From: Saccostrea cucullata
Taxonomy: Eukaryota
DNA length: 64,000 nucleotides
Direction: 5' to 3'
NCBI RefSeq assembly: GCF_032062105.1
Contig: NW_026933663.1
Coordinates: 62,001 to 126,000, forward strand
Position numbers and translations under genes: made by a program. The notes beneath the pieces were generated by a model. The model was not told the origin of the DNA. It made no database searches and saw only the letters and a program-made list of their open reading frames with translations. Of this stretch, positions 5,640 through 41,894 are shown piece after piece; position 1 is the first letter of the stretch, and each line of letters begins with the position of its first letter.

Positions 5640-6782
5640 ATGATGGCTAGCGCAAATGTTCGAAGTTTTGTGAAAGACGTAGAAAATATGTGTGAATGTA
5701 ACATTTGCTTTATCGAATATGACGAAAACAAACACGTCCCTAGAGTTTTACCATGTCAGCACACATTTTGCACGGAATGTTTAACTAAGCATTGTAAAGA
5801 ACAAACGCTAAAGTGTCCTGTGTGTAACCGAGAACACTTCACGAAAAATGGGGATGTGGAGACATTCCCAAAAGATAATACCCGTCGTGACTTAAAGGAA
5901 TTATTAGAAAGATTCATGCACTCATTGTGTGGCGTCTGTCGACGTCATGATCACGTGAGATACTTTTGTATCACGTGTAACATTCGAATTTGTCGAGAGT
6001 GTTATAAAGAAAAGAAGTCAAGTGATTGCAATACGCATGATTTTGAAAAGCCTGAAGATCCATCTGCGACTCCGGATACGTCCTTGAAATCTATATATAA
6101 TCAATCAAAAGCGAGATGTTTGCTTCCGGATCATGAGCATAACGAGTTAAAATATTACTGCGCAGAAAAGATGTGTTGCAAAGCGGTGTGTGCTAATTGT
6201 ATTGTGGAGAAGCACAGGGAGCACGCCTACTGTTCCATTGAAGATGGGTATGTCAAGTGTAAAAAGGCTCTACAAGGTACCTGTCATGCAACAAAAAGCA
6301 AAATCGATAGAACAAAGAGGCTTTTAGAAAATGTAGAAAAAGAAATCACATCGCTGCCAGAAAGTGAGAGGAAAATCAAGGAAAGCCTTACTGCCGAAGC
6401 AAATAGAGGCATTATGTACATTCAAGACTATGTAGAGAATGCCAAAAAGAAGATGAAGGAAACTGCACTGAAAAAGCTATCTACTTTGAAGAAAAAGAAA
6501 CAAATAATGCAAACTTTTATTGATAATGCTTCTGAATGCTGTGCCATTTCGAATGAGGCTTTGTTAGAAAATAATTGTATGAAATTTTTGTCGGTCGAGA
6601 AGACTTTGACAGAAAAACTGAATTATTTCAAACAGTCAGAGGTTGATCATCCTTTAGATCCAATGATGAGAGAAAATATGGACCTGCGGCGCCCCGTTCT
6701 CGAGCTAACAGAGAGAATTAACAGAATGACAAGCGATGAAGAAACAGCTGAAAGATCGAATTTAATTCCTACTACTGTATAA
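5640..6782 (+). CDS. TRIM-family E3 ubiquitin ligase (RING - B-box - B-box - coiled coil), 380 aa
   Basis: C3HC4 RING CNIC...PRVLPCQHTFCTEC...CPVC; B-box CGVC...FCITCNIRICREC; B-box CLLPDH...YYCAEKMCCKAVCANCIVEKHREH; long helical region. Splice acceptor TTTTCAG ends at 5638, just before the ATG, implying an upstream UTR exon. Confidence 0.93.
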   Translation: MMASANVRSFVKDVENMCECNICFIEYDENKHVPRVLPCQHTFCTECLTKHCKEQTLKCPVCNREHFTKNGDVETFPKDNTRRDLKELLERFMHSLCGVCRRHDHVRYFCITCNIRICRECYKEKKSSDCNTHDFEKPEDPSATPDTSLKSIYNQSKARCLLPDHEHNELKYYCAEKMCCKAVCANCIVEKHREHAYCSIEDGYVKCKKALQGTCHATKSKIDRTKRLLENVEKEITSLPESERKIKESLTAEANRGIMYIQDYVENAKKKMKETALKKLSTLKKKKQIMQTFIDNASECCAISNEALLENNCMKFLSVEKTLTEKLNYFKQSEVDHPLDPMMRENMDLRRPVLELTERINRMTSDEETAERSNLIPTTV

Positions 6783-10861: not shown

Positions 10862-13800
10862 TTACTCTAATGGCAGGAACCTTTCCCTAAAGCTCTCATT
10901 ATCTATATTGATAATGGCCCCTTCCTCTGTGAACGCGGCCACCTGTTGTTGGGGGTAGTTTCCGTGGGTCTCCGTTATAGGGATGGCTATGGTCTGTGGT
11001 AACTGCCCCTCCACCTCACTGGTGAATGACATGGTCACTGTGTTCAGCATGTTACTGGGGTCACCGTTTGGCTGGTACCCTAGGTCCTGTCCCAGGTTAT
11101 ACCCGGCACTGACCTGGGGTCGTGGTTTGGAGGTCCTCCGTTGTCGTGGCATTAGGTTGTCCTCGATGTGTGTTTTCATGTGTCTCTTCAGTTTGCCGTG
11201 TTCTTTAAAGGCTTTGGAGCAGAGCTGACATTGGAATGGTCTCTCATTTGTGTGGGTCCTGCAAATCAAAGTAGATAATGTCTATCATCTGTGTAATGGT
11301 ATTGATCAATAGTAATTCAGCCCCCCCACTCGCCATTCCATTGAAAATTGTACAAGGATGTTTGAGTTAAATTTAATTAACATGTATAAGTGACTGAAAT
11401 TGTTTACGAAAGGTGAATAATACCCTGGTATTTACAAAGCTTGAGGTTTTACCAGAAAAGATAACTTAAGAAACTTTGGAAAAATTTTTTTAGTTAAGAA
11501 AAGCTAATTTTTTTTCAATGACTTTTCTTTCTTACCTGAGATGAACAGTGTATTGTGAAGCTGATGGTATCTTCTTATTGCAGTAGGAGCAGGTGTAAAT
11601 TTTGCCGTATTTATTGTCGCTCAGTGTACCATTCAGGACGTGGCCCTTCATGTGGATTTTGTACGTCTCAGTATGTTTGAAGGCTTTCTGGCAGACATGA
11701 CACTGGAAGGACTTCTTTGTTCCATGAGTGATCTTGTGTTTTTTTAGATTTCCATACTTAAAAAATTATATGAAAAAACAAATTAACTAGCAGTGAAAAT
11801 GGTCACCGGAAAAAAATTTAACTCTGTTGCTTTTTAGATTTTCTTGAAAGTGATTTTGAGATTCCCATAAAAAATTGTGGTGCCCTATTATTTACTACAG
11901 TGGTACAGCCCAAATTTAAGAGTCTCTATATCTCCACAAAATGGTGCTGCTTTGATATAATTAATATTTATTGTGACCTTAGTTTGAAAAAAAAAATTTC
12001 TCTTGAAGAAGTTTCATCTTTTTCAGTTACATGTACTAGTCTATTAGATTTTTTAAGAGACTTTTTATAAATTAAATGTTTATTTTCATCACAATCCTTT
12101 GAAAAAAGCAAAATTATTATCAATTTATTATTCATAACCAGGTATTTCACTTTGACAAAAAAAATTTATAAAACAAGATTTTTGAGAGTACTGTATTAGC
12201 AGAAATAGTCCCCTACTAGCAAGTGTAATATGGATTTCATTAAAAATTGAAAACTCCAATTTCATCATGTTCACCATTACTCGCATTAGCAGAAAAATTA
12301 TAAACAATTTTTCTCATAGTTCCTTGGCATAAAACACAGTTCCTATTACTTTTTAATTTCATTTGTAGATATGAAATTAATATTAATTCTTAAATCAGAG
12401 TAACATGTTTGATGTTAATACATATTCATTTAGTTTAATGAGCTCCACCCACCTGCCTGAAGGACCGCCCACAAATCTCACACACAAAAGGCATGGCTCC
12501 CGAATGAATATTCATGTGGACCGTGAGGGCGGTGCTTCCAGAGAGGTATTTCCCGCACACTTCACACTGGTACTCCTTCGTCTTCTCATGCGTGTGTAAC
12601 TTCCTGTGCGTGGTCAGCGTATCGCTCTGCTTGAATGCTTTGCCGCAAATATCACAAACATAGTCGCGAATGTTACTATGAACAAATCGTTTGTGCTTAT
12701 GCAAGCTGTTCTGATGTTTGAACGTCTGTTCACAAATATCGCACTGGATCCGTTCATGAGTGAAATGGATTTTGTAATGGGAACACAAGTTCTTCTTGTT
12801 TTTATACACCTTCTGGCACAAGTTACAGGGAAGCTCCAGGTCAGGTTTATGAAAATCCACCTTCCTGGTCCACTGGAGGTTCTGCTTGAACGATCGCTCA
12901 CAGCTGTGCATGGCTAGGAGATAGAACATGCTGTACGCCTGTTTACACTGGTAACACACAAACTTGTTACTAGCACACTGTTTACACAGCCCCTGCTGGT
13001 TACACTGGACTGTTACCCTTTCACAGTTCCTACATGCCCCGGAGCTTGTCCCTCCCTCCTCTCCATCAATTTCTCCTTTACCCTGACCCTCACACCTGTG
13101 TTTTAGGTACATCCTTTCCGAATGAAAAGTTTGGTCACAATTCTTACAGCTCAATTGTTCTGGACTTGGTTCCTTGGATTTTTTGGCGTGAGGCACCCTT
13201 TCTGAATTACAAATCTTCATATGTTTCCCGAGCGTCCCATTCTCTTTGAAAGTTTTTCCACACGTAGAGCACATGAAGTCGCGGTTGTCATTGTTGCAGA
13301 TTTTCGAATGTCTCAACAAAGTTGTCTTTTCTTTGAAACATTTCCCACATAATGAACACATATGCTCTCGCTCATCACTGTGAGCAAACCGCTTGTGCTT
13401 CTTTAACTTACTGCTGTCTTTGTAATACTTAAAGCAAATATTACACTGAAACCTGGTATCACTGTAATGTAGCTTATAATGAGCACAGAGATTCTTTTTA
13501 CTCTTAAAATGCTTAAAGCACATATTACACGTGAGTCCGCCTTCTAGTGTCTCAAAGTCTATAGACAGAATGTCCTCCATGTTCTTCGGATAGGATTTCC
13601 TACAGTCGTGCATGGCCAGGATGTAGAACATCTTGTACCTCTGTTGACACTGTTTACAGGAGAACTCATTTCCACAGCATTCCTCACACAGCAGGGAGCC
13701 TCCTCCCTCTCCCAACTCTTCGCCTTGTATCGGCTTCTCACAGTTAATGCACGTCTCATTCAAACTCTCCCCTCCCTCTTCTCCGTTCTGTTCATCCTCC

Positions 13801-15582
13801 CCATGGACTTTCTTGTGTTGCTCATAAGATTCCTCATCAGGAAACAACCCCTTACACTTCCTACAGGCAAATAAATTCTTGTTGTGTTTGACCTGGTGTT
13901 CGTATAACGTCTGCTTGCTTGGGAACTCTTCATTACATTGGACACAAACGTGGACTTTTTCCCCTTCCTTTTCAGACTCTTTTCTCTTCATTTCTTTATC
14001 CACTGTGTGGGTACTGCGCTCGTGTTTCAGGAGGCCATGCTTTGTAACAAAGCTAGCAGAACACAGGTCACAGAAGTATTTCTTCTCCTGACATGATTTT
14101 GAAGATTTCTGGTGAAGACGGAGCTCCACGATGGAATTGAATTCCTGCTGACAGCCCCTACATTTTTTAGCTTTTGATATTTTCCCTTTCTTGTTTCTTG
14201 ACTTTTCATTGGTAGTTTTATTGTTACTTGATTTCTCATTGGCTCTTGTCCTGACTGAAGTTTTGGGTAAAACTTTTTGATTGGCTTTCCTTCCTCTTCC
14301 TTTCTGAACTGGTGACTTGTCTGTAGATTTTTCATTGGATGCCTCTTTTTTTTGTTTGCTGCTTTCTGAGTTCTCTTCGGTTTCTTCTTCATCAAGTAAT
14401 TTAGCACAAATGTTGGAGACAACATCACTCAGAGTTTTCGCCCCTTCAGCTACATCCATAACTGTATCGTCACTTTCATACTCAATCCCTGAAGCATAAA
14501 TATGGAAATGTTAAACATGTATTGGGCTATGTGTACAGCAAACAAGCTGAGTACATTATTATAAGAAAAATTAACCTCAGGCATATTGGTCTTTCAAATG
14601 ATTTGCATTGCAAAATTATACATTATTGCTGAGAAACCCTTTTCATAGAAAACATATACAGAGGAGCCTCATTTATTCGGATGCTTTAGTTCCTAGTCAA
14701 TTTGTACCGGATATGTGAAGCGTCCAGATACCTGAGTTACCAGTTAAACAAGACAATATTCCGTTCCCATGAAAAAGCGTCCGGATATCTGAAGGTCCAC
14801 TGTAAATTACTATCAAGTGATGGAAAACAATATTTTCTTTGTTTAGGCCCTATCAAAACAATTATTTTTTCAAAAATCCTCTAGTTCACCTACCCGATCT
14901 CCTGGTACTTTTTGCTCTAGATCCCACAAAATCATCACTTCTCTCTTCTTCATTGGGCTGCCAATCCTCGTCATTATCATCATCTACAAAATCATCACCT
15001 GGATCATCATCTTCAGTGTCATCTCCCTCCTCGGCAGTCTTCTTCCCCACTTCTTCTGGGTCAGGCACAAGGCCCTCTTGTTTCCTCTTAGCCTGTCTTG
15101 TAGTGACTCTGGACTTGATTTGTTGAGTGTCTCCAACAGGGACCTTGTCCTTGATCCTTGTTAAGCTTTCCTCTTCCTCCTTGACCTCTGTGACCATTTG
15201 GACCTCTGTGACCTCTTCTTCCTTTTTCTCACTGGCATTACTGACATAATGTTCATCAGGCTTCTCGATTTGATCTCGGACTTCTTCTCCACCTAAACAA
15301 TGAGTACCGGTAATAAGTAAACAATGAGTACAAACAATGTGAAAACAATAAGTAAACATTGAGTAAATAATAAGTAAATGATTTGTAAATGATAAATGAT
15401 AAACAGAAGGCAAATTTTTCTTCTGTTTCTTTACGCTCAGCAGTTTGTTAAATGATAAATGATAAAGAGAAGGCAAATTTTTCTTCTGTTTCTTTACGCT
15501 CAGCAGTTTGTTAATTTTGGTTGCCAATACTTTCAGTAATTAAAAATGTATGGGTGGTGGGGTAAAAATAAAAGTGCCTTCC

Positions 15583-20210: not shown

Positions 20211-20817
20211 TCTTTATATCTTTGATCGCAAAATTCACTTTGGCCGCAATGAACGCGATTCATGAAACTTACATATATTTTTTATAACGCAAAAATGTTT
20301 CGATTTAACAACATCTTGTGAATCGCGTTTGCTGCGGCCAATGTTGAAATTGAGTTTATATGCCTTCTTTGTTTTTCCGGATTTCAAGTTGAGAAATCTA
20401 ATGTGAAATTATTTTTCAATAAAGGCACCGTCATTGCTGTTAATTTTTTTTTTTTAGAAAGTTACAAAATAAGTAAATAAGTCTAATCATAAATCATTAA
20501 GAACATAGACTGAACAATAAATTAGGTAGACAATATATTTTATCCACCCTTCAGGTGAAAACTATCGATAGGGATAACGTTAGATCAGCATGCTTAAAGA
20601 TTGAAGTTAAAGTGTTCATCTGACCCCCCCCCCCCCCAAAAAAAAAAAATGTAACAGAGAAAAATTGTAATAGTACGCAAATAAGATAATATTTAAATAA
20701 TCAAGATTTTTAGCACTTTTTATGTTTGTTTTGCAACTGCATGATATAATTGTTTGATTCTCGCCTGGAAATGTTTATGAATATTACACAATGGATTCAT
20801 TGATGACGTCACAATAG

Positions 20818-23800
20818 CACGGCGGGGAATCTACGTCATCGTAAGGGATTAGGACACACAAAAATGGAGGACAAATGCTCCGCTTCGATGTAAGAAATTG
20901 ATATTTTTGCACTTATAAAGAATGGATATTAAATCAGTATCCTGCCTAAAGTATACCAAAGAACGTCAACTATAATATATATTGTACGTTTGTTCGTGAT
21001 AGAATCTTATTGCTCCAAACACTTCGACACAGTTTGAGAACAAGTGAGAAAAACCCGGAATGTGGGGCACACATTTTTAAAATTCGACCTATTATTCGCA
21101 TGTCCAGATGTACCAAGACATTTTATTCTTCCGCGTTTACACTAGAACTAATATTTTAAAAATCCAGATGTGTTTAATAGTGTATTATGCTTTAACAATC
21201 CAAGAAAAAACTTTAAATCATTTTGTAATCAAAAATGATATAGGGCACACCAACACTAAAACGGATATGGGACACACAATAAGTTACTTTCAAATTGAAA
21301 CATCGAGCATTCATATCTCAATGTTTCCATTTAAATGAATGCTGTTAGGTAGTATATAAACAATAACCTGTAAAACTCATGTTTGTAATACTCATCCACA
21401 TACTTGATTCCCTTGTTTTGCTTGTATCCAAACAAAAATGCTGGTCTATTCCTCAACAAAAGCTTCCAACGAGAATTTTAAATTTTGACTTTTATCAAAT
21501 TTCATGTAGAAATTTACCGGTGTTCACTTGTGCAGGTCTATACTATGGAAAGAGGGGGACCGAAGTCCGGAGATTGTGTTTATTTTATGATATTTCTATT
21601 TTAAATTACACGACCCCCCCCCCCCCCAAAAAAAAAAATAATAAAAACACACATACACATACACACTCACGAAATAAGTTCTTTTTAGGTTGGTTGTTTA
21701 CTCTATTGCTTGTCAAAATAGTCTGATGTCAGAAAATTCTTTGGAGTTTGTGTGGACCCCCCCCCCTTCCATCCCAAAAAAGTTCCTAAATCTGCATATT
21801 GGTATTAATAATAGGATCTTGGGCACTAGTATGTCTTTTAATATGGGAAAGAGATCAAGAACTTTTCTTATGCTCAAATATTTGCAACAACTGACCCTCC
21901 AGATGAATATAAGAATTGTTTTTCTCTAAACATGCTACAATGGTCTATAAAGAGATCGGGAAATTTCAAATTGAAACAAATAGTTTCGGAAAGCTATTTT
22001 ATTTGCTCCTAACTTGCATTCAGGTGAACATAGAATTAGTTATCGAATGTATGAAAGTGGTTGCCAGTGATGGGTAGGGCCAAAACAAAAAATGTCTTTT
22101 CGTTGTTGCCAATCAAAGGTTTTTAGCTGTCATTTTTCTCTGATAATGCCCCCCCCCCTTCCAAAACTTATCCTATAAAAGAGCTTGACATTTCTTTTTT
22201 GGTATAGCTACTAAAGTACTTTTTACAAAAAATCCCACTTTATACTGCTATAGTATTATTTATTTAACCCTGCTCCTATCATTGCTTTTGGCTAATACTC
22301 CAGCAAATTTAAATAAGATGGCATGAAATGCTTTATGAGTACGTAATGTTTAATCACTGATTCATACATGTATAATAAAACAATAATTGTTGGGTTTTTT
22401 TTTCAATCAATACGATGATTTAGCCACCTTCGAAGTACAATATTCATCTTTGTCTTTTTTTCTCAAATATGGAGTCGGTAATAAACTATTAGAATTTTGA
22501 CACAAGTTTGTCAGCTGTTGCAAATATTTGAGCATTAGAAAAGTTTCTTAATCTCCTTTCCTATCAGCTGGCATATTAGAGTCTTGCCGACAAAGATCTT
22601 ATAAATACAAACACTGAATATACGAATACAGAAACTTTTCGGGGGGGGGAGAGGGGGGGGGGGGGGGGGGGGGGGGGTCCACATAAACTAAAAAAAAGTT
22701 CTGACTTCAAAATATTTTTACAAGCAAAGAAATTAAACAATCAACCTAAAAAAAAGCTATTTCATGTGTATTCAATAGGGTCTGGGTCGTGTTACTTAAC
22801 ACAGAAATATCGTATGGTACGTAAAATATACATAGACTCCGGACTTAAACCCTCCTTTTAGATCCGCATACTAGTATCTTTCAATATGATATTTAATAAA
22901 AGTCAAAATTTGAAATTCATTTTGGCAGCTTTTGTTGAGGATCACGCAGGACATTTCAACTTATAATATTTGAATTTTTGTATGGATACAAGCAAACCAA
23001 GGGAAAATCAAATATTTGGATGAGTTTAATTATTACAAAGATGTATTGTACAAGATACAAGATATTTTATTTACCAATCAAGTGCCCCGAGGGGCATTTC
23101 AACACACATAATGTTTATTGACAAATGAGCAAAAAATGTTGTTCATCTTCATATAACATTGTATATAACATTGAGAACACTTTCTAGATTCAGGGGGAAG
23201 TCCTGGATATCTTCCCCTTTCAATATTTAATTAATGTGCAGGAATGCGAAGTTTGTTATATTTTCCTCTGAACATAGTTATTGACAATGTTGAGACAGTG
23301 TTCTCCTCCAAAATTGGTTCTGAAGATGGAATAAGTTCTTAGTTTACCATCATTTTGCTGCCTATTTTCTCTAATTTATTTGGTTTATAAAATATTGTCT
23401 TATAATACATGATGACTTCTTTTTGAATGAACAAGTACTACACGTATATTTTGATAAGTTAATATTTTTGAAAGCAGTTAAATGACCCAAAATTGTCTCA
23501 ATAGATGCAATCCAAGATGGTTTATTTTATAAAAAGATGCTTTTTGAGACGGAGTATGCTTCTTTGAGTAGGACAAAAGATGGATGTAATGTTTTTAGTC
23601 GAAACCAGTAACTTAGCATAGCTTTAATAACTGAATGATATAGGGGAAGAGTCATTGTTCATATACTACCAAACAACAGTCATTTAAATGGAAACATTGA
23701 GATATGAATGCTCGATGTTTCAATTTGAAAGTAACTTATTGTGTGTCCCATATCCGTTTTAGTGTTGGTGTGCCCTACATCATTTCTGAAAACAAAATGA

Positions 23801-24201
23801 TTTAAACCTTTTTCGTGGATAATTAAAGCATAATACACTGTGAAACAAATCTGGATTTTTTAAAATATTAGTTCTAGTGTAAACGCGGAAGAATAAAATG
23901 TCTTGGTACATCTGGACATGCAAATAAAAGGTCGAATTTTAAAAATGTGTGCCCCACATTCCGGGTTTTTCTCACTTGTTCTCAAACTGTGTCGAAGTGT
24001 TTGGAGCAATAAGATTCTATCACGAACAAACGTACAATATATATTATAGTTGACGTTCTTTGGTATACTTTAGGCAGGATACTGATTTAATATCCATTCT
24101 TTATAAGTGCAAAAATATCAATTTCTTACATCGAAGCGGAGCATTTGTCCTCCATTTTTGTGTGTCCTAATCCCTTACGATGACGTAGATTCCCCGCCGT
24201 G
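20818..24201. mobile_element. Long-TIR foldback DNA transposon, Transib/RAG-like by termini (non-autonomous)
   Basis: AATAG|CACGGCGGGGAATC...GATTCCCCGCCGTG|AATAG, a 5-bp TSD. Outer arms (~550 bp) are near-identical; diverged inner arms continue to ~21895/22505. No transposase ORF. Confidence 0.85.
23100..23650 (-). mobile_element. Decayed 3' fragment of an RTE-X-like LINE ORF2 inserted in the foldback's right arm
   Basis: Minus-strand translation gives FPLYHSVIKAMLSYWFRL...GKLRTYSIFRTNF...KLRIPAH*LNIERGRY...RKCSQC...EDEQHFLLIC with stops and frameshifts. It is absent from the left arm. Confidence 0.75.
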
Positions 24202-24694
24202 AATAGATAGTTTAAAAATACCTTTTTTCAACTTTTTTTTAAGTTGCTGACTTGCTGTTGATAATATTTTTTAGAACTTTAATATATGACAATTTATAAT
24301 TGTGAAGAGATCCTGAGATTAGGTTGACGAGAAAGGTAAATTGGTTTTTTTTTTCTTTTTTTTTTTTGTTCAAGTAAATTCAATCGATCTAGACCTACTT
24401 ATATATATAAGAATAAAAATGCTTGTTAAATTTCTAACAAATGAATGGTTGCATGTTCCTTCTGAAAAACGTTCTGAAATCCAGAAAAAGAAAGTATGAT
24501 AGTTATTTTTTTTTTCAGGGTAAGCTGTCCAACAAAACTAGTCATTGTTGCTGTAAATATAAATATCTGGTACACCCGATGGTATTAAGATCATATAAGT
24601 GGGCTCTACTGTATTCAGTGTATTATGTAAAATGAATAAAATCCACTGCCTTTATGTATATTTAGTGGTGCATATTGCATAATACATGTTTCAA

Positions 24695-24972
24695 CACTGA
24701 AAAAAATAATTAGTGAAAGTCACTGGGAAGACTAGTAAATTTACTGTCCATACAATCACTACCTTAAAAGTAGTTTTACTGGGAATTGGGTAGATTTACT
24801 AGATAACATTAGTAAATCTAAGCATTTATTAGTAACTTTCACTAGGTATTTTAGTATCTTTACGACCACTACACCACTTTTCACTATCTTAGCTAGTAAA
24901 CAGGATGATTACTTATCACTGTCCATACAATCACTACCTTAAAAGTAGTTTAACTAGGTAATTCTCTAAGTG
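24695..24972. mobile_element. EnSpm/CACTA-type MITE
   Basis: AA|CACTGAAAAAAA...TCTCTAAGTG|AA with a 2-bp TSD; same family as 40529-41894. Confidence 0.7.
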
Positions 24973-25322
24973 AAGTTCATTACAATGTTTATAAGTATAG
25001 AATGTAATTTAATTATAAAATTGGGGTGGTGGGGTGGGCATGCCCCTTCGTTTGAGAGAATTATTATACAATTATTATACAATTTACCTGTGTAATAATT
25101 TCAAATAATTCCACACGTAACATTCAGAAACCTAGTTTTTTGACTGATTCATAAACCTGTTCTTGCAAAAAAAATCTTAACCTCTCCCGTCCCTTCCCGT
25201 GACAATTTGTATGTATGTACCTTGTTTTTCCTTCTAAAAACAATACTTAAACTGACTCCGCATTGTCAGTTCCTCCATAAATTGCAACAAAGTTGTAAGG
25301 GGTTATATAAATGAGTTATATT

Positions 25323-26623
25323 TAAGGAATAACTGTCTTATTTTTTGAATTCATGAAGTGATCAATGGATTGGCTTGTGTGGTAATTTGCATAAACGCCG
25401 AAGGCGTTTATGCATAAAATTATCACACAAGCCAATCCATTGATCATCTTCATGAATTCGAAAAATTTGACAGTTATTTCTTATATTTACATGCTTTGAT
25501 TCGGCCAATCCACGGGCTCCAAGCCTGCTTCTCTCTAGGTGTGTCCCGCCTTGCACGTGGTTTTTTTTTCGAACCGCGCCAAAACATTCACGAGGAAATC
25601 AATTACATTTACATTTGGTAATTTTATCTCAGACAAAGACATTGGAAATGTAAATATAAATAGATAATATATATAAGCGCATACGAATAAACAGATGAAT
25701 AAGTATTCATTTTCTGGCTTGCACTTGCATTTTGTCTTATTACGACTTGCTTTCCTTATTTTACTCCAGCAATTGCATTTTAGTGTCATTGTTCAAAAAA
25801 GTTGTGTGAAATCATATTCCGATTTTTCTTTCGTCGACTTGAAAACAGACAGCGGTAAATAAATTTCATTTGCATTTTCATTGCAATTGCATTTTAGTGT
25901 CATTGTTCAAAAAAGTTGTGTGAAATCATATTCCGAATTTTCTTTCGTCGACTTGAAAACAGACAGCGGTAAATAAATTTCAATTGACAACATTATAATG
26001 TAATTGCATAAAAGGCAGTCCGATTAAAATCAAACCTTCACAAGCTCCTTTTTATTTTGTTTGTCGCGTGAAGGGTGGTGTCTTCTATAAATATTTACAA
26101 AAACATTTGGACAAGTAATAAAGTATATTCTGACATTGACTGGGGGTATCTTCACCCGTCAAAAACACTGAACGTAGTTTTGATTTTTTAATGCTTGTCA
26201 AATTAACTGGGAATTTAATGAAATGGTCTCTAAACATCATCGAAAAACTCATTCAGTCATACAGTGGTTTAAAAGTAAATATTTCCATTTCTAACTTTTC
26301 TCTCTGTGATAACTCTTTGAGAGCTAGCGGAGTTAATTTCTTGATAATTCTACCGGAATTTAAATGGTAGGTCAATATGTCAGGAGCTAAGGAGGCCTAA
26401 TATGCATGCAAATCTTGTGCACATCTGTCTCGGAGCCTGACGCTAAGGATGCCAAATATGCATGAAAATCTTGTGTGGCTGCCTTTGTGTTTGATGTCAG
26501 TGGGAGAGGGCTTTGGAAATTGGGACGGGAATCATCGTGTAAATTAAATCCATGTCTGTATTTTTAAGGTCTAAATCTACAATTTTATTTCACAATGAAA
26601 TGGAAATATAAGAAATCACTGTC
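25323..26623. mobile_element. Crypton-like element with a large terminal palindrome
   Basis: ~165-bp palindrome centred on GCCGAAGGC (25397-25405). Its arm sequence recurs inverted at ~26597-26623. Internal 115-bp (25769-25982) and ~63-bp (26382-26476) tandem duplications. Confidence 0.5.
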
Positions 26624-28558: not shown

Positions 28559-29100
28559 TAGCTGCAGAACTGTAGCTCTCCAAACAAAAATGTATTGATA
28601 GACTGTAGAGCTACAGTGCCACCCATTGAAAAAAAACTGTATATTTATTGCACAAAAAAAGCATTCTTGGTTCTTGATTATTTCTTCCAAATTCTTACGT
28701 CAATTGAAAAAAAAGGGAAGATTTCAAATAATTCCTTTCTCCTCTATCAAGTACTCTCGAAGTTGACATCTGAACGAAGCATATTTGACTGAATTATCTT
28801 TGAAACCAAAATGGCAGTGTAAATAAGAGAAATGTTCGATGATTACAATATCAGGGTTAGGAGGACTATTATCAACAATATTATGAGGAATGTTTTGTTG
28901 CGGAAAGAGTCAAAGAATATGTTATGAACACATGGTTAGTAATATTTTGAGATTACAGTTTTAAAATCATGGAGAAATAAATCGAAAACTGAGCACACTT
29001 TTTAGGGCGCAATAAATATACAGTTTTTTGAATGGATGGCACTGTAGCTCTCCAGTCTATCAATATATATTTTTTTCGGAGAGCTACAGATCTACAGCTA
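28559..29100. mobile_element. MULE/Mutator-type MITE (9-bp TSD)
   Basis: Long TIRs (>70 bp) TAGCTG.AGA.CTGTAGCTCTCC. TSD GCTTATGAT at 28550-28558 and 29107-29115, with an extra CATGTA between the right end and the TSD. Confidence 0.8.
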
Positions 29101-30773: not shown

Positions 30774-32739
30774 TTAGCAATGACAGGCATGCGCGAGTTA
30801 TGGCACTTTCCTATTCTGCTCCATGCTAAATAGGTCATGTTTATAAGTGAATTAACAGCTTAAATTTCTGTGCATACTTTAATTTCTTGATTCAGATTAA
30901 AAGTTAAAAGACCATTTTGGATAATACATACATCGATTCCTGACAAAAGTGCGTAAAAAAATGCATAACACGAGATACTCGCACGGTTATATAGATAACA
31001 AAGACGTAATGGCGGCCATTATGTGAGAAAACCCTGATGTTATAAATAGGCATTATAATGCTTAATCACTTGATATTAGACAGTCATATGAATGTTTTAC
31101 GAAGGCTGAAAGATAGAGATTTCTAAAAACATCTTGGGTACGTAGATCAAGTCCCATAAATAGAAATTTAAAGCGAAAGTAGATGACATATCGTGTTCAA
31201 CTTCGTTTCTTTCGTTAATTTGCCGTTTTGACAATACTTTGACAGCAATAAACAGAAGGAGAAATCATTTTTCTTTCATTTGGTATATAGTTTCTTAAAA
31301 TAAATCGTTGCGCATAGGTGCGCAATGAGCTTTAACCAGTTATGCTTGACAAAAACGTCGACATTTTTAACAGGGGCAGATAACTGAAATTCCCGCGCAA
31401 CATCGGAGATTCTGAGAAGGCATTATTTCTAAGTTGTATATTTGTTGATCAATGTCAATCTCAAGCTGTTATATTCTTACAATGCTAATAAAAATAATAA
31501 AAAGTAAATAAAATGCATGATTTTAATGAATCAGATCTATGAACTTTGATTAGTATCACTGCATTCTACAACTTTAGGATACCATTAAGTCCATTTGCAG
31601 TAATTGGTGTAATGTATGGATAATTATAATTATTATAATAGATCTATATGTTTTCATTTTTTTAAATTCATATATTTCTTTTAAACAATTTTTATAGCAG
31701 AATATCAAGTGATTGAACAGATTAAGAGGACCTCGAGTTCATACTTGGAATTTTTTTTTCAGGAATTTTTTTTTATCAGATTTATACACATGTACCAGTA
31801 TATCGTACAGCTAGATTAGCATTATTTTAAAATTTGAATTGCTCAAAATAAAAACAATGAATGCTAATACTTTTGAAGTGTTGTTTAAATATTAGATTTA
31901 TATTTTAATCAAATTGTTTCAACAAAAAAGAAATAAAAATATTCTAACAATATTATTTTGCAATATTTAATAATACATGCATTTTTATAACAACATATTT
32001 AAAGATATAATAATTTAAAATCCATGAGTATGTAAACAAAATATAAATAATATTCTTTGCTGATGTGTACTTCATTAAAAGTACTCATGTTCTATCTTAA
32101 TTACTAAGTGCCTGGTTTCCCTATTTGGTATAACATTAAGTATAATTCCGAAGATCCTACAATTTATACTTATAAACTGAAAAATGATCTGGAATCAGGG
32201 GCTTGAAAACAAAAGTTTAATAGATTTTGCATTTGATTCTCAGAGTAAAATCAGCAGTAAATGCTGTCATTATTTAAAATTGTTTAAAATGAATATCAAT
32301 TTACATTTCTTCAAGTGTTATTATTATTTTTTTTTACAACCGAAAAATTGGCAGAAAACACGAAATGCTACTGAATTTCAAATACTTATATCTTTTTTGT
32401 ACATTGACCAATCTGAATAACCTTTACACCATTGAAATCCTTGTAAACTGACCTTTCTTTTGATGTAAAAGAAGTGTGGTTTCAAAATTATTTTAAAAAT
32501 TGCCTGTTATTGCTAAATAAATAAATAATTAATTGATATACAGTCCTATACACCAATCAACTGAAAAGCAGCAATAATACATCTTACACTTTACATTATC
32601 TTTTGTTCTCTTTTAAGCCCCTTTTTTTCTTGTTAATAGCTAGGTGAAGGAAAGAAGCATCAGTTGAGAGGAACTATTAACCATTTTCCAGTAGCTCGAT
32701 TTTTCACAAGGATTCTGTCAGATATAGACATGTTTTGAA

Positions 32740-33657
32740 ATGAATAAACAGTGTCATCTTAAGATGCTGAGCTGTATCACTTTTCGTAAAATTAAAAACA
32801 TATCCCTCTGTCTCATGATGGCTGCCCTGGTCGCAAATCTGATGGGACTTCTGTCTAAAATTTGGACTTCACGCAAAGTAGAGGAACATTCCTACCGTGA
32901 GAGCAAATACAAACTTCCATACCCAAAGACTCCACATTTAGTCCTGGGAAATGACGTCATAAAAGACAGAAAAATCTTAATAATTGGTGACGTACATGGC
33001 TGTCTAGAAGAGTTGAAGGAATTGTTGGAGGAAGCGAAATCAAGGTGCGCGGATCAAGAGATCCTTCCTGTGTTTGTAGGTGATCTTCTTTCTAAAGGAC
33101 CATTTCCGGTGGAGACTGTCAGAAAACTCCAAACTATGGACCATTTTGCGGTGCGTGGAAACCATGACGAAGCAGTGCTTAGACAAGCTTTACTCTACAA
33201 AAGTACAGAAAATTACGAACTTCCAAAGAAGTATGAATGGGTGCCGAAGCTCTCTGAAAAAGATATCACATATCTTCAGGAACTTCCATATACAATTTCC
33301 ATTCCGAGTATAAATGTGATAATTGTTCATGCGGGATTGATTCCAGGAGTTGATCTCTTTAAACAGAATTTGACTAACATGATCATTATGCGAAACATTG
33401 TAAAATCTCCCAATGGTTCTCTGACTCCAGCAGAATTAACAAACGAAGGAGAGGCTTGGGCCTCACTTTGGCCTGGCCCAGATCACGTGTATTTTGGCCA
33501 TGATGCCATAAGGCGTTTACAGGAGCATGCGCATGCAACGGGCCTAGATACTGGCTGTGTGTATGGGAACGAACTAACTGGTGCTTTGGTCTCCAAGGAC
33601 AGAAGAGAATTCATTCACATCAAAGCCAAAAAAGTTTACAAACAACCTGACATATGA
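32740..33657 (+). CDS. ApaH-like phosphatase (ALPH); bis(5'-nucleosyl)-tetraphosphatase/PrpE-like PPP-family metallophosphoesterase, 305 aa
   Basis: Motifs IIGDVHG, FVGDLLSKGP, VRGNHD, VHAG, YFGHD and GLDTGCVYG in the expected order. Uninterrupted ORF with an acceptor-like pyrimidine tract/AG at ~32643 upstream. Hydrophobic N-terminal segment; start codon choice uncertain. Confidence 0.93.
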   Translation: MNKQCHLKMLSCITFRKIKNISLCLMMAALVANLMGLLSKIWTSRKVEEHSYRESKYKLPYPKTPHLVLGNDVIKDRKILIIGDVHGCLEELKELLEEAKSRCADQEILPVFVGDLLSKGPFPVETVRKLQTMDHFAVRGNHDEAVLRQALLYKSTENYELPKKYEWVPKLSEKDITYLQELPYTISIPSINVIIVHAGLIPGVDLFKQNLTNMIIMRNIVKSPNGSLTPAELTNEGEAWASLWPGPDHVYFGHDAIRRLQEHAHATGLDTGCVYGNELTGALVSKDRREFIHIKAKKVYKQPDI

Positions 33658-33775
33658 TAGACTGGGAAAACCACACAGATAGTGCTTCTTATTATTAACC
33701 TTTGTACAAGTTCATTCTCAGATTGTATTTTTGAGATATTTTAGGGAGCCTTTTAATTAGATTGTTTCCATAGTA

Positions 33776-34264
33776 CAGTCAGGGGTGTGACTGAAATCCA
33801 TCATTTTTAAAAATGATGGATAATGGTCATTTCTTCTAAGTATATAATGTACACAATTTTCTGATTTTTGTAAATATGACGTCTTTTCATCATATTTCCA
33901 TTCTCAAGTCAATTTTCCCATCCCATTTACTACAGTAATTAGATATAGTACACTATCCTGCCATAGACCCTTGTGAAGAGAAACATCTTGACAAGTAATT
34001 GAAACCAAAATAATTTAGTGCGCCCCGTAAAACTAATGAGATAATTAAGTGCGCCCAGACCTAACAATTTGATAAAAAATGATGAAAAACAGTCATTTTT
34101 AATATCAGAGATAACTCTATTTCTAAAATAAATTTCAAAATAGAAATGACTGTTTTTCATCATTTTACTAAAAAAAGATGAATTTCCATCATTATTAAAA
34201 ATCAATTTAATGACTGAAAATCATCATTTTTAAAAATGATGGATTTCAATCACACCCCTGACTG
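33776..34264. mobile_element. MITE in the probable 3' UTR of the ALPH gene
   Basis: TA|CAGTCAGGGGTGTGA.TGAAATCCATCATTTTTAAAAATGATG...CATCATTTTTAAAAATGATGGATTTCAATCACACCCCTGACTG|TA. Confidence 0.85.
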
Positions 34265-35412
34265 TAGTATGCAATTTGCAAATATCGTGACATGTATTTC
34301 TAAATGTTCTTTAAAAATGTTTCCATATACTAGTATTCTTTGTGTGTTTATTGAAAGACGAATCAAATTAATATTACAATGTATTATGTTTTTCTAATGA
34401 ACCATGATAACGTTTACAAGTGTATTCAGAAGAGGCGAAATTTGCTTTGGTGACTGGTTTTCCAAGTAACTGAGTCACCATATTTCACTTTATAGAGTTA
34501 GTATAATACTGTTTATATTCATTTTAAAGGAAATATTTTGTGGGGTGCGAACATTGGCTTTTTTTAGTGTATTTGTTGTAGTCCGCTAAATAAAATAATA
34601 TAAATCAAGGTTTGTATCCATGCTTAAAGGTACTGATCGAATTCAAGAAAGATAAATGATCAGCCAGTTGTTAAACGTTATTTATAATTATCGTATTTAA
34701 CTTTATTTTTTTCTTACATAAACAGTTATTCAAAATTATGATCAATCAAATTAAATTTATGGGAAATACTGTTTAAAACTATGTTTGTAAAAAAAAAAAA
34801 TTAAAAATACAAGGATTTTCATCATTTTTTTGATCTGATCTGAACTCCTTGTAATGTATGCTGGTATATTTTGTGTAAGAACGTCTTGTGGTACTATGAT
34901 TTTAAAATGAGAATATCGCTGAAAATTAATTGAGTAAGGTAGATTGTAGACTTTTTCAATAATTATGTACGTTGCATCTGTCCTTAAAAAATATTTGGTT
35001 GCCCTCTCCCGACCGACCGGTTAAAAAATAGCCCGACTTAAAACTTTTTTTAACCTCCATGAGGCAATTATTTTTTAATGTGCTTCGGAAAATTAATTAG
35101 GAAAATTCAGCATTGATGTTGAAATTTTTCTAGAAGAAAAATATTCTTACCTACCTACCGGCCAATTTTTTTTTTTCATCGTGAGTCTGAAGAGGACAAA
35201 CACACATTGTTTTAAACTTGGTCTGATAAAAAGGGGTAAAAAATTTTTTTTATAAATATACCCCAAAACCTCGTGTCAAAATATTTGTACATTTTTAGGT
35301 CACCTGAGTAAACTCAGGTGACCTATTGCTATCTGTTTTCGTCCGTCGTCATGCATCGTGCGTTATCCGTTAACATTTGAACATTTTCAGTTTCTTCTCT
35401 GCAACCACTGAA

Positions 35413-36766: not shown

Positions 36767-37435
36767 CAGGTCCAGCACAATCTCTTGATTAAGCTATATA
36801 GCTTTAAAAAGCTATATAGCTTTATTAAGCTATTCAAAATAGCTTGATAAAGCTATTTATATGCTATTTTTCACAAAAACGTTTTTTGAAAGAATTAAAC
36901 AAAAAGTCGCAAATATTTAACTATTCATATATGTACTATGGACTATCAAAAATACAACCTAAATCATAGAAAGTTCTAACATTGCTGCTGTTGAATACTA
37001 AAGCAAAATATGAATTTCCATTTTTGAGTAACTGTGTATGCGGTGGGGCGTGGGTAAGTATGATTGCTTCTCGTTGTGCTGAACTGTTACTAATCAATTA
37101 TCCTGTTGGCCATAACTGGTCTCCTTTATAATTTCATTCAAGAAATAACTGTGTGGTCACTCATCAATAGCCCCAAAACTTTTAAAACTTTGAGTACAAA
37201 GTCTCTCAAGGAGACGCAATTTGGTGAGTGATTTTTACATGCATTGTATTCAGAAGAGTACAAAGTTTAATATTTCCACTGCACCAAGGTGCGACTTTTT
37301 GTACATGTTGAAAAAATAACACATTTGAGAAAAAAGTCTGAGAAAATAGCTTAATCAAGCTATTCTGAATAGCGTAATAAAGCTATATAGCTAAATCAAG
37401 CTATATAGCTTAATCAAGAGATTGTGCCGGACCTG
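36767..37435. mobile_element. TIR element with a 5-bp TSD (hAT-like CAGG ends)
   Basis: CCAAT|CAGGTCC.GCACAATCTCTTGATTAAGCTATATAGC...GCTATATAGCTTAATCAAGAGATTGTGCCGGACCTG|CCAAT. Confidence 0.85.
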
Positions 37436-39087: not shown

Positions 39088-40528
39088 CTATTAGGATAGC
39101 ATAAAAAAAGAATGTACAAATGTTTATAATTGATTTATCGAAACAAAATTTTATTTCCTTCTCCTTCGGGACTTTTTTATTCTCATGTTCATAACTAAAC
39201 CTAAACATAAAAAAAAAATGCTGGCCTTATAATGAAGAAAGGGGCCTCTTTCAAAATAGATAATTTCAGGGCCGCTTGGTCAGGGGTACCAGGGGGGTAC
39301 TTTGACTAAAAATAAATTAATGCTTTGAAATCTGCCCTTTGATAAGCAATGGTGCCTCTTTCAAAATTTGTGAATTTCATGGCTTTTGGATTAAAACACG
39401 AACCAAATACAATCGCTGGAAAGTTGTTACATGATACTCAGGTGACCTATAAGGCCCGTGGGCCTCTTGTCTTTTTTCATTCTAGACTATTGGAGAAAAA
39501 TGATTTTACTTTCCTGTAACCTTTTACATTACGTGACTTTCATTATGTTAATTTTCGGTGGAAAAATAACCCCTTTTCATGTTGTATTTAAATGGTCTAC
39601 TTCAACGTATTATATATAAAATGTAAACATAGGGTCACGAAAATATAGGACAACTAACAACCTGTTATGATGCAATGTCATTGGTATTTTCTAAAAAACC
39701 TTAAAATTGAACGATCTTTGAATAATAGAAACAAAGTGAATGCTGAGAGACATGATTTTAAAAGAAACAGAGAAAATAAAATCTATTACGCGGAGAAATG
39801 ATGATGAAATGCACCTTCATCATGTTCATGTATACAAAATACTCGGTAAATGGATCAAATAGGGTGTTAAACAAGACATTTAAATTATTTTATAGTTGCA
39901 CAGAGATTTTAAACTCATTAAATTTGACATAGCGTGAAGGACATTATTCGTTCTACAAGATAGATAAAACACAATGCATTCATCGTGTTCATGGGTATTA
40001 AATGAGATGGAAGACCTTATAAAATCATATATAATATCGTCTGTATTCAATAGCACGTCCAAATATGAAGCAGACGTGGCAAACATAAAACGGACATAAA
40101 ATTTCTGCATATGTGAAATATATACAATCGTATAATGTGCATTCAATTTTGTTGATAAATAGTTACCTTCTGAATTTCTTTTCCACAAATATGAAAGAAT
40201 TCAAATAAGGGCAATGTAGTATTGTATGCACCCCATAAAAAATTGAAACGGAATGAAGTTGGTATTGAAAAAAAAAATCTCACTCTCTATCCCTCCCCCC
40301 TCCCCAAGATGTAGGATTTTCGAGTTTTGTCTATTTTCCCCCTTTTTTTGCTTGTCGAATTTTTCAGGTAAGTAGGATTTTTTCTCTGGCTCCACCTCCC
40401 ACTTTCAATAACGATGCTTTGTTGCAACCACTATTGAATGTGGTTACTACATGTAACTATGGATGTTATTGAAATGCACTCTCAACCACTACTCATATAA
40501 TTATTTCAATAGTAGTCGTATTTCATTA

Positions 40529-41894
40529 CACTGAAAAAAATAAACTAGTGAAAGTCACTGGGAAGACTAGTAAATTTACTGTCCATACAATCACTATCTT
40601 AAAAGTACGAGGGTTGATCCAAAAGTAATGTCACAGGGTCCATATCTTTTATATTTGGCGTCATATTATCAAATACAATATATCAAAAGATGCACAAATA
40701 TAAATCTAATTAACATTGATATTTTAATTTCATAATGTTCATTTGAATTTATTTTATAGATGTTTAAACCATAGAGCATAGGGGGTGTCGCCGCGTCACA
40801 ACGGAACGTCACGTTTTAAAGTGTATTTTTTCTTAGAATGAAAAAAGACAAACACATTAAAAATATTCTAAAGAAGCACCTATTAGAATCTCCCAATTTT
40901 TTAAAGACACAATTCTCGTCATTTTCTAGTCTTTAATTGAAAATTAAATGATGGCATTGGTATTTGTGATCATCATAAACATTGTTGTTTTACTCTGTTG
41001 AATTAAGCAAAAGGATTGTCGAAATGGAGAAAAAAGGCTCGACGAGTTGTAATTCATTTTTGCTTCAAAATATGGGAATCATCACTAGCGACATTTTCGT
41101 TAATCAATCAGACTTACAGAATAAAGAATGTAAATAAGAGACATCTTAATAGATGGTTTCAGCAATTTTTGGCGGGTGATGGGTCACTGAATGATTAGCC
41201 GAGGACAAGAAGACCGAAAGATAGGAGATCGGACAGAAACGTTCAATGGTGTCTGACGTTGTCAAAAAAGACAGACGTATATAGAGTGACATGTGAATTT
41301 TTAAGTTTGTCTTATGCTACCGTTCAAAAACTTTTGACAGAGGGCTTAATTATGAAAAGAGTAAGTGTATAATGGTACCAAGAATTCTTAAAGAAAGTGG
41401 AATTGGTGAAAGTGTTTGCGAATCACTTTATATTTTTTAATGAAACAAAGGGGAAACGCTTAAAAGTATGACGATGTGTATCCGTCATATGCCGTTATAT
41501 TTAGGTGCGGCGACTACCATAAACGCGCATTGTTTAAAATCCGATATTTTGAAAAGTATACATCATATTTCTTTGAATTTTTCAGGTCTGATTTGAAATA
41601 AATAAAGCTGCCATCATGTAGAATTTTGTTGCTTTACGTCGATTTATAGCAATTTTATCAAAGTTGTGACATTACTTTTGGATCAACCCTCGTAGTTCTA
41701 CCAAGTATTGGTAGATTTACTAGATAACATTTGTAAATCTAAGAATTTCTAAGTAACTTTCACTAGGTATCTAAGTATATTTACGACCACTACTCCACGT
41801 TTCACTATGTTAGCTAGTACACAGAGTGATTACTAATCACGAAGAACTCTTTACTAGGCACACTAGTTAAATCAACTAGGTAATTTTCTCAGTG
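40529..41894. mobile_element. EnSpm/CACTA-type MITE (family of 24695-24972) split by a mariner
   Basis: CACTGAAAAAAA...TTTTCTCAGTG. Collinear with the 24695 copy once 40608-41692 is removed. Confidence 0.8.
40608..41692 (+). mobile_element. Mariner deletion derivative with pseudogenised transposase N-terminus
   Basis: TA|CGAGGGTTGATCCAAAAGTAATGTCACA...TGTGACATTACTTTTGGATCAACCCTCG|TA (28-bp perfect TIR). Mariner HTH-like RVVIHFCFK...RWFQQFLAGDGSLND*PRTRRP and a frameshifted (W)VPRIL motif near 41372-41389. Confidence 0.9.

Follow-up and report, generated by a model that had tools for sequence, protein, structure and literature searches.

Between positions 20818 and 24201 of a 64-kb stretch of Saccostrea cucullata DNA (the window; contig NW_026933663.1) lies a real, gene-less mobile DNA element of about 3.4 kb with mirrored ends of half a kilobase. 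It starts with CAC, ends with GTG and is flanked on both sides by AATAG. Judged from its ends and its target duplication, it is probably moved by a Transib-superfamily enzyme which is encoded elsewhere and differs from the oyster RAGL-B enzymes, and the nonamer in its ends would be incidental.

The TSD AATAG is located at 20813-20817 on the left and at 24202-24206 on the right, each read on the plus strand. When duplication lengths of 2-9 bp were tested, 5 bp was the sole fit (one insertion, n = 1); the chance that two random 5-mers from the window are identical is 0.002. The terminal heptamer CACGGCG occupies 20818-20824 on the plus strand and, as its reverse complement, 24195-24201 on the minus strand. 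Both ends consist of this heptamer, 33 nt and the nonamer-like block ACAAAAATG, a chance-level match, which is found at 20858-20866 (plus strand) and, as a copy of the left block, at 24153-24161 (minus strand). The termini and the exact 5-bp TSD reported in the initial annotation checked out in coordinates and letters. Likewise, its count of 5/7 and 7/9 identities between each end and the V(D)J RSS was correct upon recomputation. The TSD is one-fifth G+C and the 35-bp target site has 29% G+C (29-33% for the site as a whole) compared with 33% for the window (one site). No second copy of the element end was found within the window; three matches with at most two mismatches were obtained, the third being a lone 12-mer.

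Inverted-repeat alignment placed the left TIR at 20818-21367 (plus strand, 550 bp, starting with CAC) and the right TIR at 23654-24201 (minus strand, ending with GTG). The TIRs measured 550/551 bp, in agreement with the more than 500 bp proposed earlier. They are 96.4% identical with 20 differences; the first 273 nt are identical and mismatches start at 274. Both the TSD and the TIRs exceed chance. The inverted symmetry extends further inward: an older left arm at 21369-21895 (plus strand) is an inverted copy of 22510-23052 (64%, E = 3e-31, blastn), and it pairs with an older right arm at 22510-23049 (minus strand). With the insertion removed, arm identity per 100 nt declines inwards from 1.00, 1.00 and 0.98 to 0.92-0.96 and finally to 0.74-0.88. 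Because the symmetry continues past the TIRs, the element is a foldback in which arms of about 1.1 kb flank a centre of 0.6 kb. This unpaired centre (21896-22509) is devoid of a long ORF and is not repeated elsewhere in the window. Thus, the long-TIR foldback of the initial annotation is confirmed, but the older inner arms and a nested LINE fragment had been overlooked.

A search for coding remnants in the element was negative. Of the 32 listed stop-to-stop ORFs of at least 40 aa, eight were scanned and none matched Pfam at E ≤ 1; a six-frame reading of 21368-22640 encountered stops throughout. Remnants of a transposase, of RAG1L or of RAG2L were absent from these eight ORFs and from the six-frame reading of the interior, as expected of the non-autonomous element that had been postulated. 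The predicted fold of a single TIR arm was unremarkable (z = -0.82). The arms carry no regular subterminal repeat array, although there are two or three copies each of a few 7-9-mers, and no tandem-repeat module was seen in them. The TIR has CTCCGCTTC (20878-20886) and a TGACGT half-site (20833-20838), both of which are also present in the published 5' end of oyster RAGL-B, 60-95 nt inwards. Possibly these are shared host-factor sites, possibly they are due to chance.

Which enzyme might move such an element? CAC ends together with a 5-bp TSD are the signature of Transib and RAGL transposons in the sections consulted of the respective reports (PMC1131882; PMC7204232; bioRxiv 10.1101/100735). 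The element has the CAC...GTG termini and, in one insertion, the 5-bp TSD of Transib; therefore, the Transib superfamily is favored, which sustains the original assignment because this combination suits Transib better than Chapaev (3-4 bp) or EnSpm. According to the passages at hand, symmetric TIRs prevail among Transib families, some of which lack the nonamer (PMC8289069, PMC9435367, PMC8355894); in HzTransib the TIRs have little or no similarity to it (PMC8289069). Other features agree less well. The Transib terminus is described as 38 bp with a heptamer, a 23-nt spacer and an A-rich nonamer, an arrangement that is not universal (PMC1131882, PMC8289069, both in part). The element end matches this consensus at 4/7 heptamer positions, and at 3/9 nonamer positions with a spacer of 23 compared with 7/9 with a spacer of 33. 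Published Transib and RAGL TIRs comprise tens of bases, e.g. 38 bp (PMC1131882) or 13 bp (PMC4411706) in the text available. Targets favored by Transib (PMC1131882) and RAGL (PMC10629977) are GC-rich as far as these sources were accessible, and the AT-rich target of the element, a single site, may speak against Transib. In addition, a survey of mollusc genomes listed one intact Transib ORF among 14,275 DDE elements in the part consulted (PMC10294476).

The AT-rich target and the long TIRs would be compatible with a different transposase of the CMCT clade, Chapaev-like, EnSpm-like or undescribed, which generates a 5-bp TSD and tolerates long TIRs. CA..TG ends are common to all CMCT lineages, and TSDs in the clade as a whole range from 2-5 bp (PMC12730594, in part). 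Moreover, CMC elements were present in every surveyed mollusc genome and Transib was nearly absent, as stated in the available portion of PMC10294476. However, Chapaev TSDs are 3-4 bp in the excerpt examined (PMC4079192), and readings of 2, 3 or 4 bp fail at this element. Outside Transib, the parts of the literature examined yielded no CAC family with a 5-bp TSD. Taken together, another CMCT enzyme is a possible, though unlikely, source of mobility.

The initial annotation had read each end as an RSS-like bipartite signal. This reading found no support against the window background of 1364 CAC sites, since beyond CAC both heptamer and nonamer are at chance level. An RSS heptamer with at least 5/7 identities is present at 28% of these sites. 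A 7/9 nonamer match occurs at 7.8% of them when spacers of 10-40 are allowed, which bears out the reservation made at the time that the nonamer could be fortuitous, and at 2.4% when the spacer is 12, 23 or 34 ± 1. Heptamer and nonamer features together are found at 2.1% (calculated post hoc). The exact 9-mer has eight copies in the window, one of them at 21432 within the left arm. At the spacers of the RSS itself the element end matches the nonamer at 1/9 (spacer 12) and 4/9 (spacer 23), and in place of an asymmetric 12/23 pair of the V(D)J type both ends are identical. As the ends are copies of each other, the nonamer at the second end is not a second observation. Given these frequencies and a spacer of 33 that was chosen afterwards, the RSS match is not evidence, and the A-rich block is likely to be incidental.

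A true bipartite end, i.e. heptamer, 33 nt and nonamer in a symmetric 33/33 arrangement analogous to the 12/23 rule and recognised by a RAG1-like enzyme that carries a nonamer-binding domain, could draw on the fact that spacer 33 is the best nonamer position among spacers 5-59, with 7/9 identities to RSS and Transib consensus nonamers alike. Bipartite ends with other spacers are on record, 27/31 in ProtoRAG (PMC8289069), and the ends of PflRAGL-A differ by 10 bp (PMC10629977), both according to partial texts. Against this weigh the chance rates of about 8% at spacer 10-40 and of 2.4% in helical phase as well as the eight exact window copies of the 9-mer. Further, the element ends have neither a TR2 block nor asymmetry. 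In the portion seen of PMC7204232, conservation at the ends of protostome RAGL spans 13-15 bp only. The block in reverse matches ProtoRAG TR5 at 6/9, and it resembles a YY1-type host-factor box, so alternative readings fit as well. We consider a genuine bipartite signal quite improbable.

Could the element be a non-autonomous derivative of the oyster RAGL-B (Biv1) transposon? RAGL-B loci are reported from Saccostrea glomerata and Crassostrea (PMC7204232, in part), and RAGL-B has the CAC end and the 5-bp TSD in common with the element. Yet a tie to the known oyster RAG-like family finds no support in the ends, because oyster RAGL-B starts with CACTATCAAACTT, to which the element is identical at 4 of 13 nt. 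The degenerate protostome RAGL consensus is matched at 8/17 positions; its AAA at 8-10 (TR2) is absent and GGG is present instead. A RAG1L or RAG2L remnant was not detected in the element ORFs scanned. As far as the accessible text goes, the three true oysters covered by Martin et al. yielded no non-autonomous RAGL (PMC7204232). By its end sequence, a RAGL-B derivation seems close to refuted and has hardly any probability left.

Relatives of the element were looked up in five public sequencing runs from two organisms (shares 0.10-0.14), four of which were aligned, to 22690-24740 only and at 80% likeness. Contigs covered the right TIR in all four aligned runs. The listed pieces included TIR variants with as little as 1 difference in 139 nt (run X4, record 31) and with as many as 28 differences over 161 nt (records 13 and 21); at least three variants were present among the listed contigs. 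Records 13 and 21 had depths of 382 and 847 compared with about 20 and about 50 for the lowest listed pieces, depth not being equal to copy number. In three of the four runs the summed depth climbed towards the TIR tip. A contig of 1061 nt resembles the window over the outer 139 nt only, and both its flanks are unlike the window. Because several TIR variants occur in the contigs, we take the TIR to be a multi-variant repeat and the element to be a member of a family. Among the 40 of 270 differences listed, none fell within 24065-24201.

At TIR positions 138, 156, 221 and 242 both arms in the window agree, and all listed depth from organism A has another base. Bases common to both arms fit homogenisation between the arms, or else a master copy peculiar to the species, and for this reason the identity of the arms is not a clean clock. 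Recent mobility of the element is plausible at most; the likeness of its arms could be due in part to such homogenisation. The sole listed loose end at the TIR tip (runs X2 and X3) sets in one base too soon and has A instead of the terminal G, a point against Transib. Contig record 6 extends 19 nt beyond the tip, which is under the bridging threshold of 31 nt. The left-flank sequence had no match among the listed loose ends of the runs, which aligned to 22690-24740.

The right arm is interrupted at 23050-23653 (minus strand) by what appears to be the nested 3' end of a 5'-truncated LINE of about 0.6 kb with a decayed ORF2 C-terminus, a short 3' UTR and a TCTTGTA-type tail. The ORF2 C-terminus is broken by stops and frameshifts. 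Two unnamed proteins matched the fragment in three frames (tblastn, E = 3e-38 and 9e-31). Both were negative in a Pfam search; for one of them the nearest Pfam-bearing cluster was zf-RVT (score 0.93, 60% of members), which may serve as a lead. The fragment also seems to have the C-terminal motif of a LINE ORF2. In public contigs, loose ends before 23055 carried mixed sequence, as left by a 3' tail that has entered numerous sites; another loose end, of 255 nt at 23648, indicated that the LINE sequence runs on elsewhere. The LINE label is based on the protein matches, the loose ends of the contigs and the presumed C-terminal motif. A duplication of 4-5 nt, ACAAT on the minus strand, probably borders the fragment. 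One contig (run X1, record 2, 23539-23698) bridges the junction between LINE and TIR; hence a LINE-bearing arm exists in organism A too. A joint of 23005 to 23654, seen in three of four runs, was considered as a LINE-free right arm and rejected because the left arm aligns identically. In all four runs the summed depth of the LINE tail at 23055-23111 was far above that of the LINE body, and the four runs shared loose ends at 23108-23111. It seems that a commoner repeat, perhaps a SINE, shares the LINE 3' tail at 23055-23111.

With a Transib-superfamily enzyme as the preferred reading, the following course may be envisaged. The ancestor would have had arms of about 1.1 kb around a centre of 0.6 kb. 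A transposase supplied in trans would pair two identical ends by binding their outer few tens of bases; according to the Transib/RAG mechanism in the literature, nicking would take place at CAC, and the target would be joined with a stagger of 5 nt. The inner arms presumably decayed and the LINE 3' end entered the right arm, while the outer arms may have been kept alike by selection or by arm-to-arm conversion.

The window contains further repeats. At 36767-37435 a second gene-less inverted-repeat element of 669 bp has CAGG...CCTG ends, arms of 92 nt at 91% and CCAAT on each side as a 5-bp TSD; ends and TSD suggest a hAT5-type MITE. The presence of this CAG-ended element, and the 5-bp TSDs which hAT5 generates (PMC12730594, in part), might argue that a hAT5-type transposase moves the foldback element. 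In the available part of PMC1131882, however, the third terminal base of hAT elements is always G in 22 families, and here it is C. We deem a hAT5-type enzyme very improbable. A nested hairpin at 25317-25489 with 42- and 30-nt arms and a short loop is possibly a small palindromic mobile element. Two short elements at 28582-29076 and 33766-34274 have inverted arms of 66-78 nt and are probable MITEs. A repeat at 24689-24920 has window copies at 40521-40607 and 41692-41840; at its start (24694-24700) many loose ends and very high run depth were noted. The window also encodes a RING/B-box protein (5640-6782), a multi-exon C2H2 zinc-finger protein (10862-15539, minus strand) and a PrpE-like metallophosphoesterase (32728-33657). 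For the gene at 32764-33657 the best named match was a Saccostrea echinata protein with 86% over 78% of the length; identities were 57% with Pinctada and about 51% with Mytilus. By these matches the host is an oyster close to Saccostrea, in line with the initial annotation.

Is the family known? The exact end pattern had no match in IMG/VR or GTDB. Nineteen JGI metagenome loci with this pattern were discarded as chance matches; all had 50-75% G+C and matched over 18-22 nt. The literature searched, which does not reach into Repbase and Dfam, held no description of the element end. No similar end was present in the examined portions of the supplements of PMC7204232, PMC9435367, PMC4411706 and PMC4079192, nor in 12 of the 33 supplementary files of PMC10294476. 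A match of the end heptamer in the transposon literature turned out to be a primer sequence in the excerpt at hand and was dropped. A 7-mer attributed to HzTransib had no match in the Transib literature, and a search for CMC-Transib in the oyster literature returned unrelated matches only. The element is best regarded as a family new within an established type, and its membership in Transib is likely; it may already be contained in Repbase or Dfam.

The element is an ordinary sort of gene-less TIR transposon with unusually long ends. Families of this kind are common in oyster genomes, and we describe one copy. A search of an assembly with its TIR as bait might reveal a second bivalve lineage of the Transib/RAG clade, or another CMCT lineage with 5-bp TSDs. 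The bait is of modest value because intact Transib is rare in molluscs (1 of 14,275 DDE elements in the part seen of PMC10294476) and because the ends are unlike those of oyster RAGL. A bearing on the origin of the V(D)J signal would require both a RAG1-like autonomous copy and a conserved nonamer. That the element belongs to an undescribed molluscan Transib/RAG-clade lineage, in which the ends are long and symmetric and the transposase recognises a genuine heptamer-33-nonamer signal, is a doubtful proposition of low probability; if it were true, the autonomous copy would be a further Transib-RAG intermediate, and this among molluscs, from which intact Transib is hardly known.

Very long TIRs, a gene-less interior and nested insertions are characteristic of the Drosophila foldback elements Galileo and Tetris. 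In these three respects both resemble our element; in the source consulted Galileo is a P-superfamily element, unlike the Transib-type reading preferred here. Chapaev and Chapaev3 have the same invariant CAC...GTG, whereas their TSDs of 3-4 bp differ from the 5 bp observed (PMC4079192, in part). The asymmetric ends with TR2 and the GC-rich TSDs of RAGL-A have no counterpart in the element, judged from the accessible text of PMC10629977. Oyster RAGL-B Biv1 (Cvi, Cgi, Sgl) shares host family, CAC and 5-bp TSD with the element; the asymmetric short TIRs, the AAA at 8-10 and the RAG1L-RAG2L genes set it apart (PMC7204232, in part). TransibSU-1_PM/RAGL of Patiria miniata also has a CAC end and a 5-bp TSD, and 9 of its first 13 nt are alike (PMC4411706, in part). 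All four differences are G for A, and the match is weak, for 60 out of 1364 CAC sites do equally well. In the excerpt available its 13-bp TIRs enclose RAG1L and RAG2L, whereas the element has no genes, and the heptamer is followed by an A-rich run, in the element by a run of G (PMC4411706). Compared with Transib proper as presented in the consulted part of PMC1131882, the A-rich block stands at spacer 33 instead of 23, the heptamer agrees at 4/7 and the target is AT-rich; arms of 550 bp to 1.1 kb contrast with termini of about 38 bp. The closest likeness in type is to the non-autonomous Transib elements TransibN1-3_AG, TransibN1_SP and Hopper (PMC1131882, in part), with which the element shares CAC...GTG, a 5-bp TSD, the lack of coding capacity and, as in most Transib families, symmetric ends.
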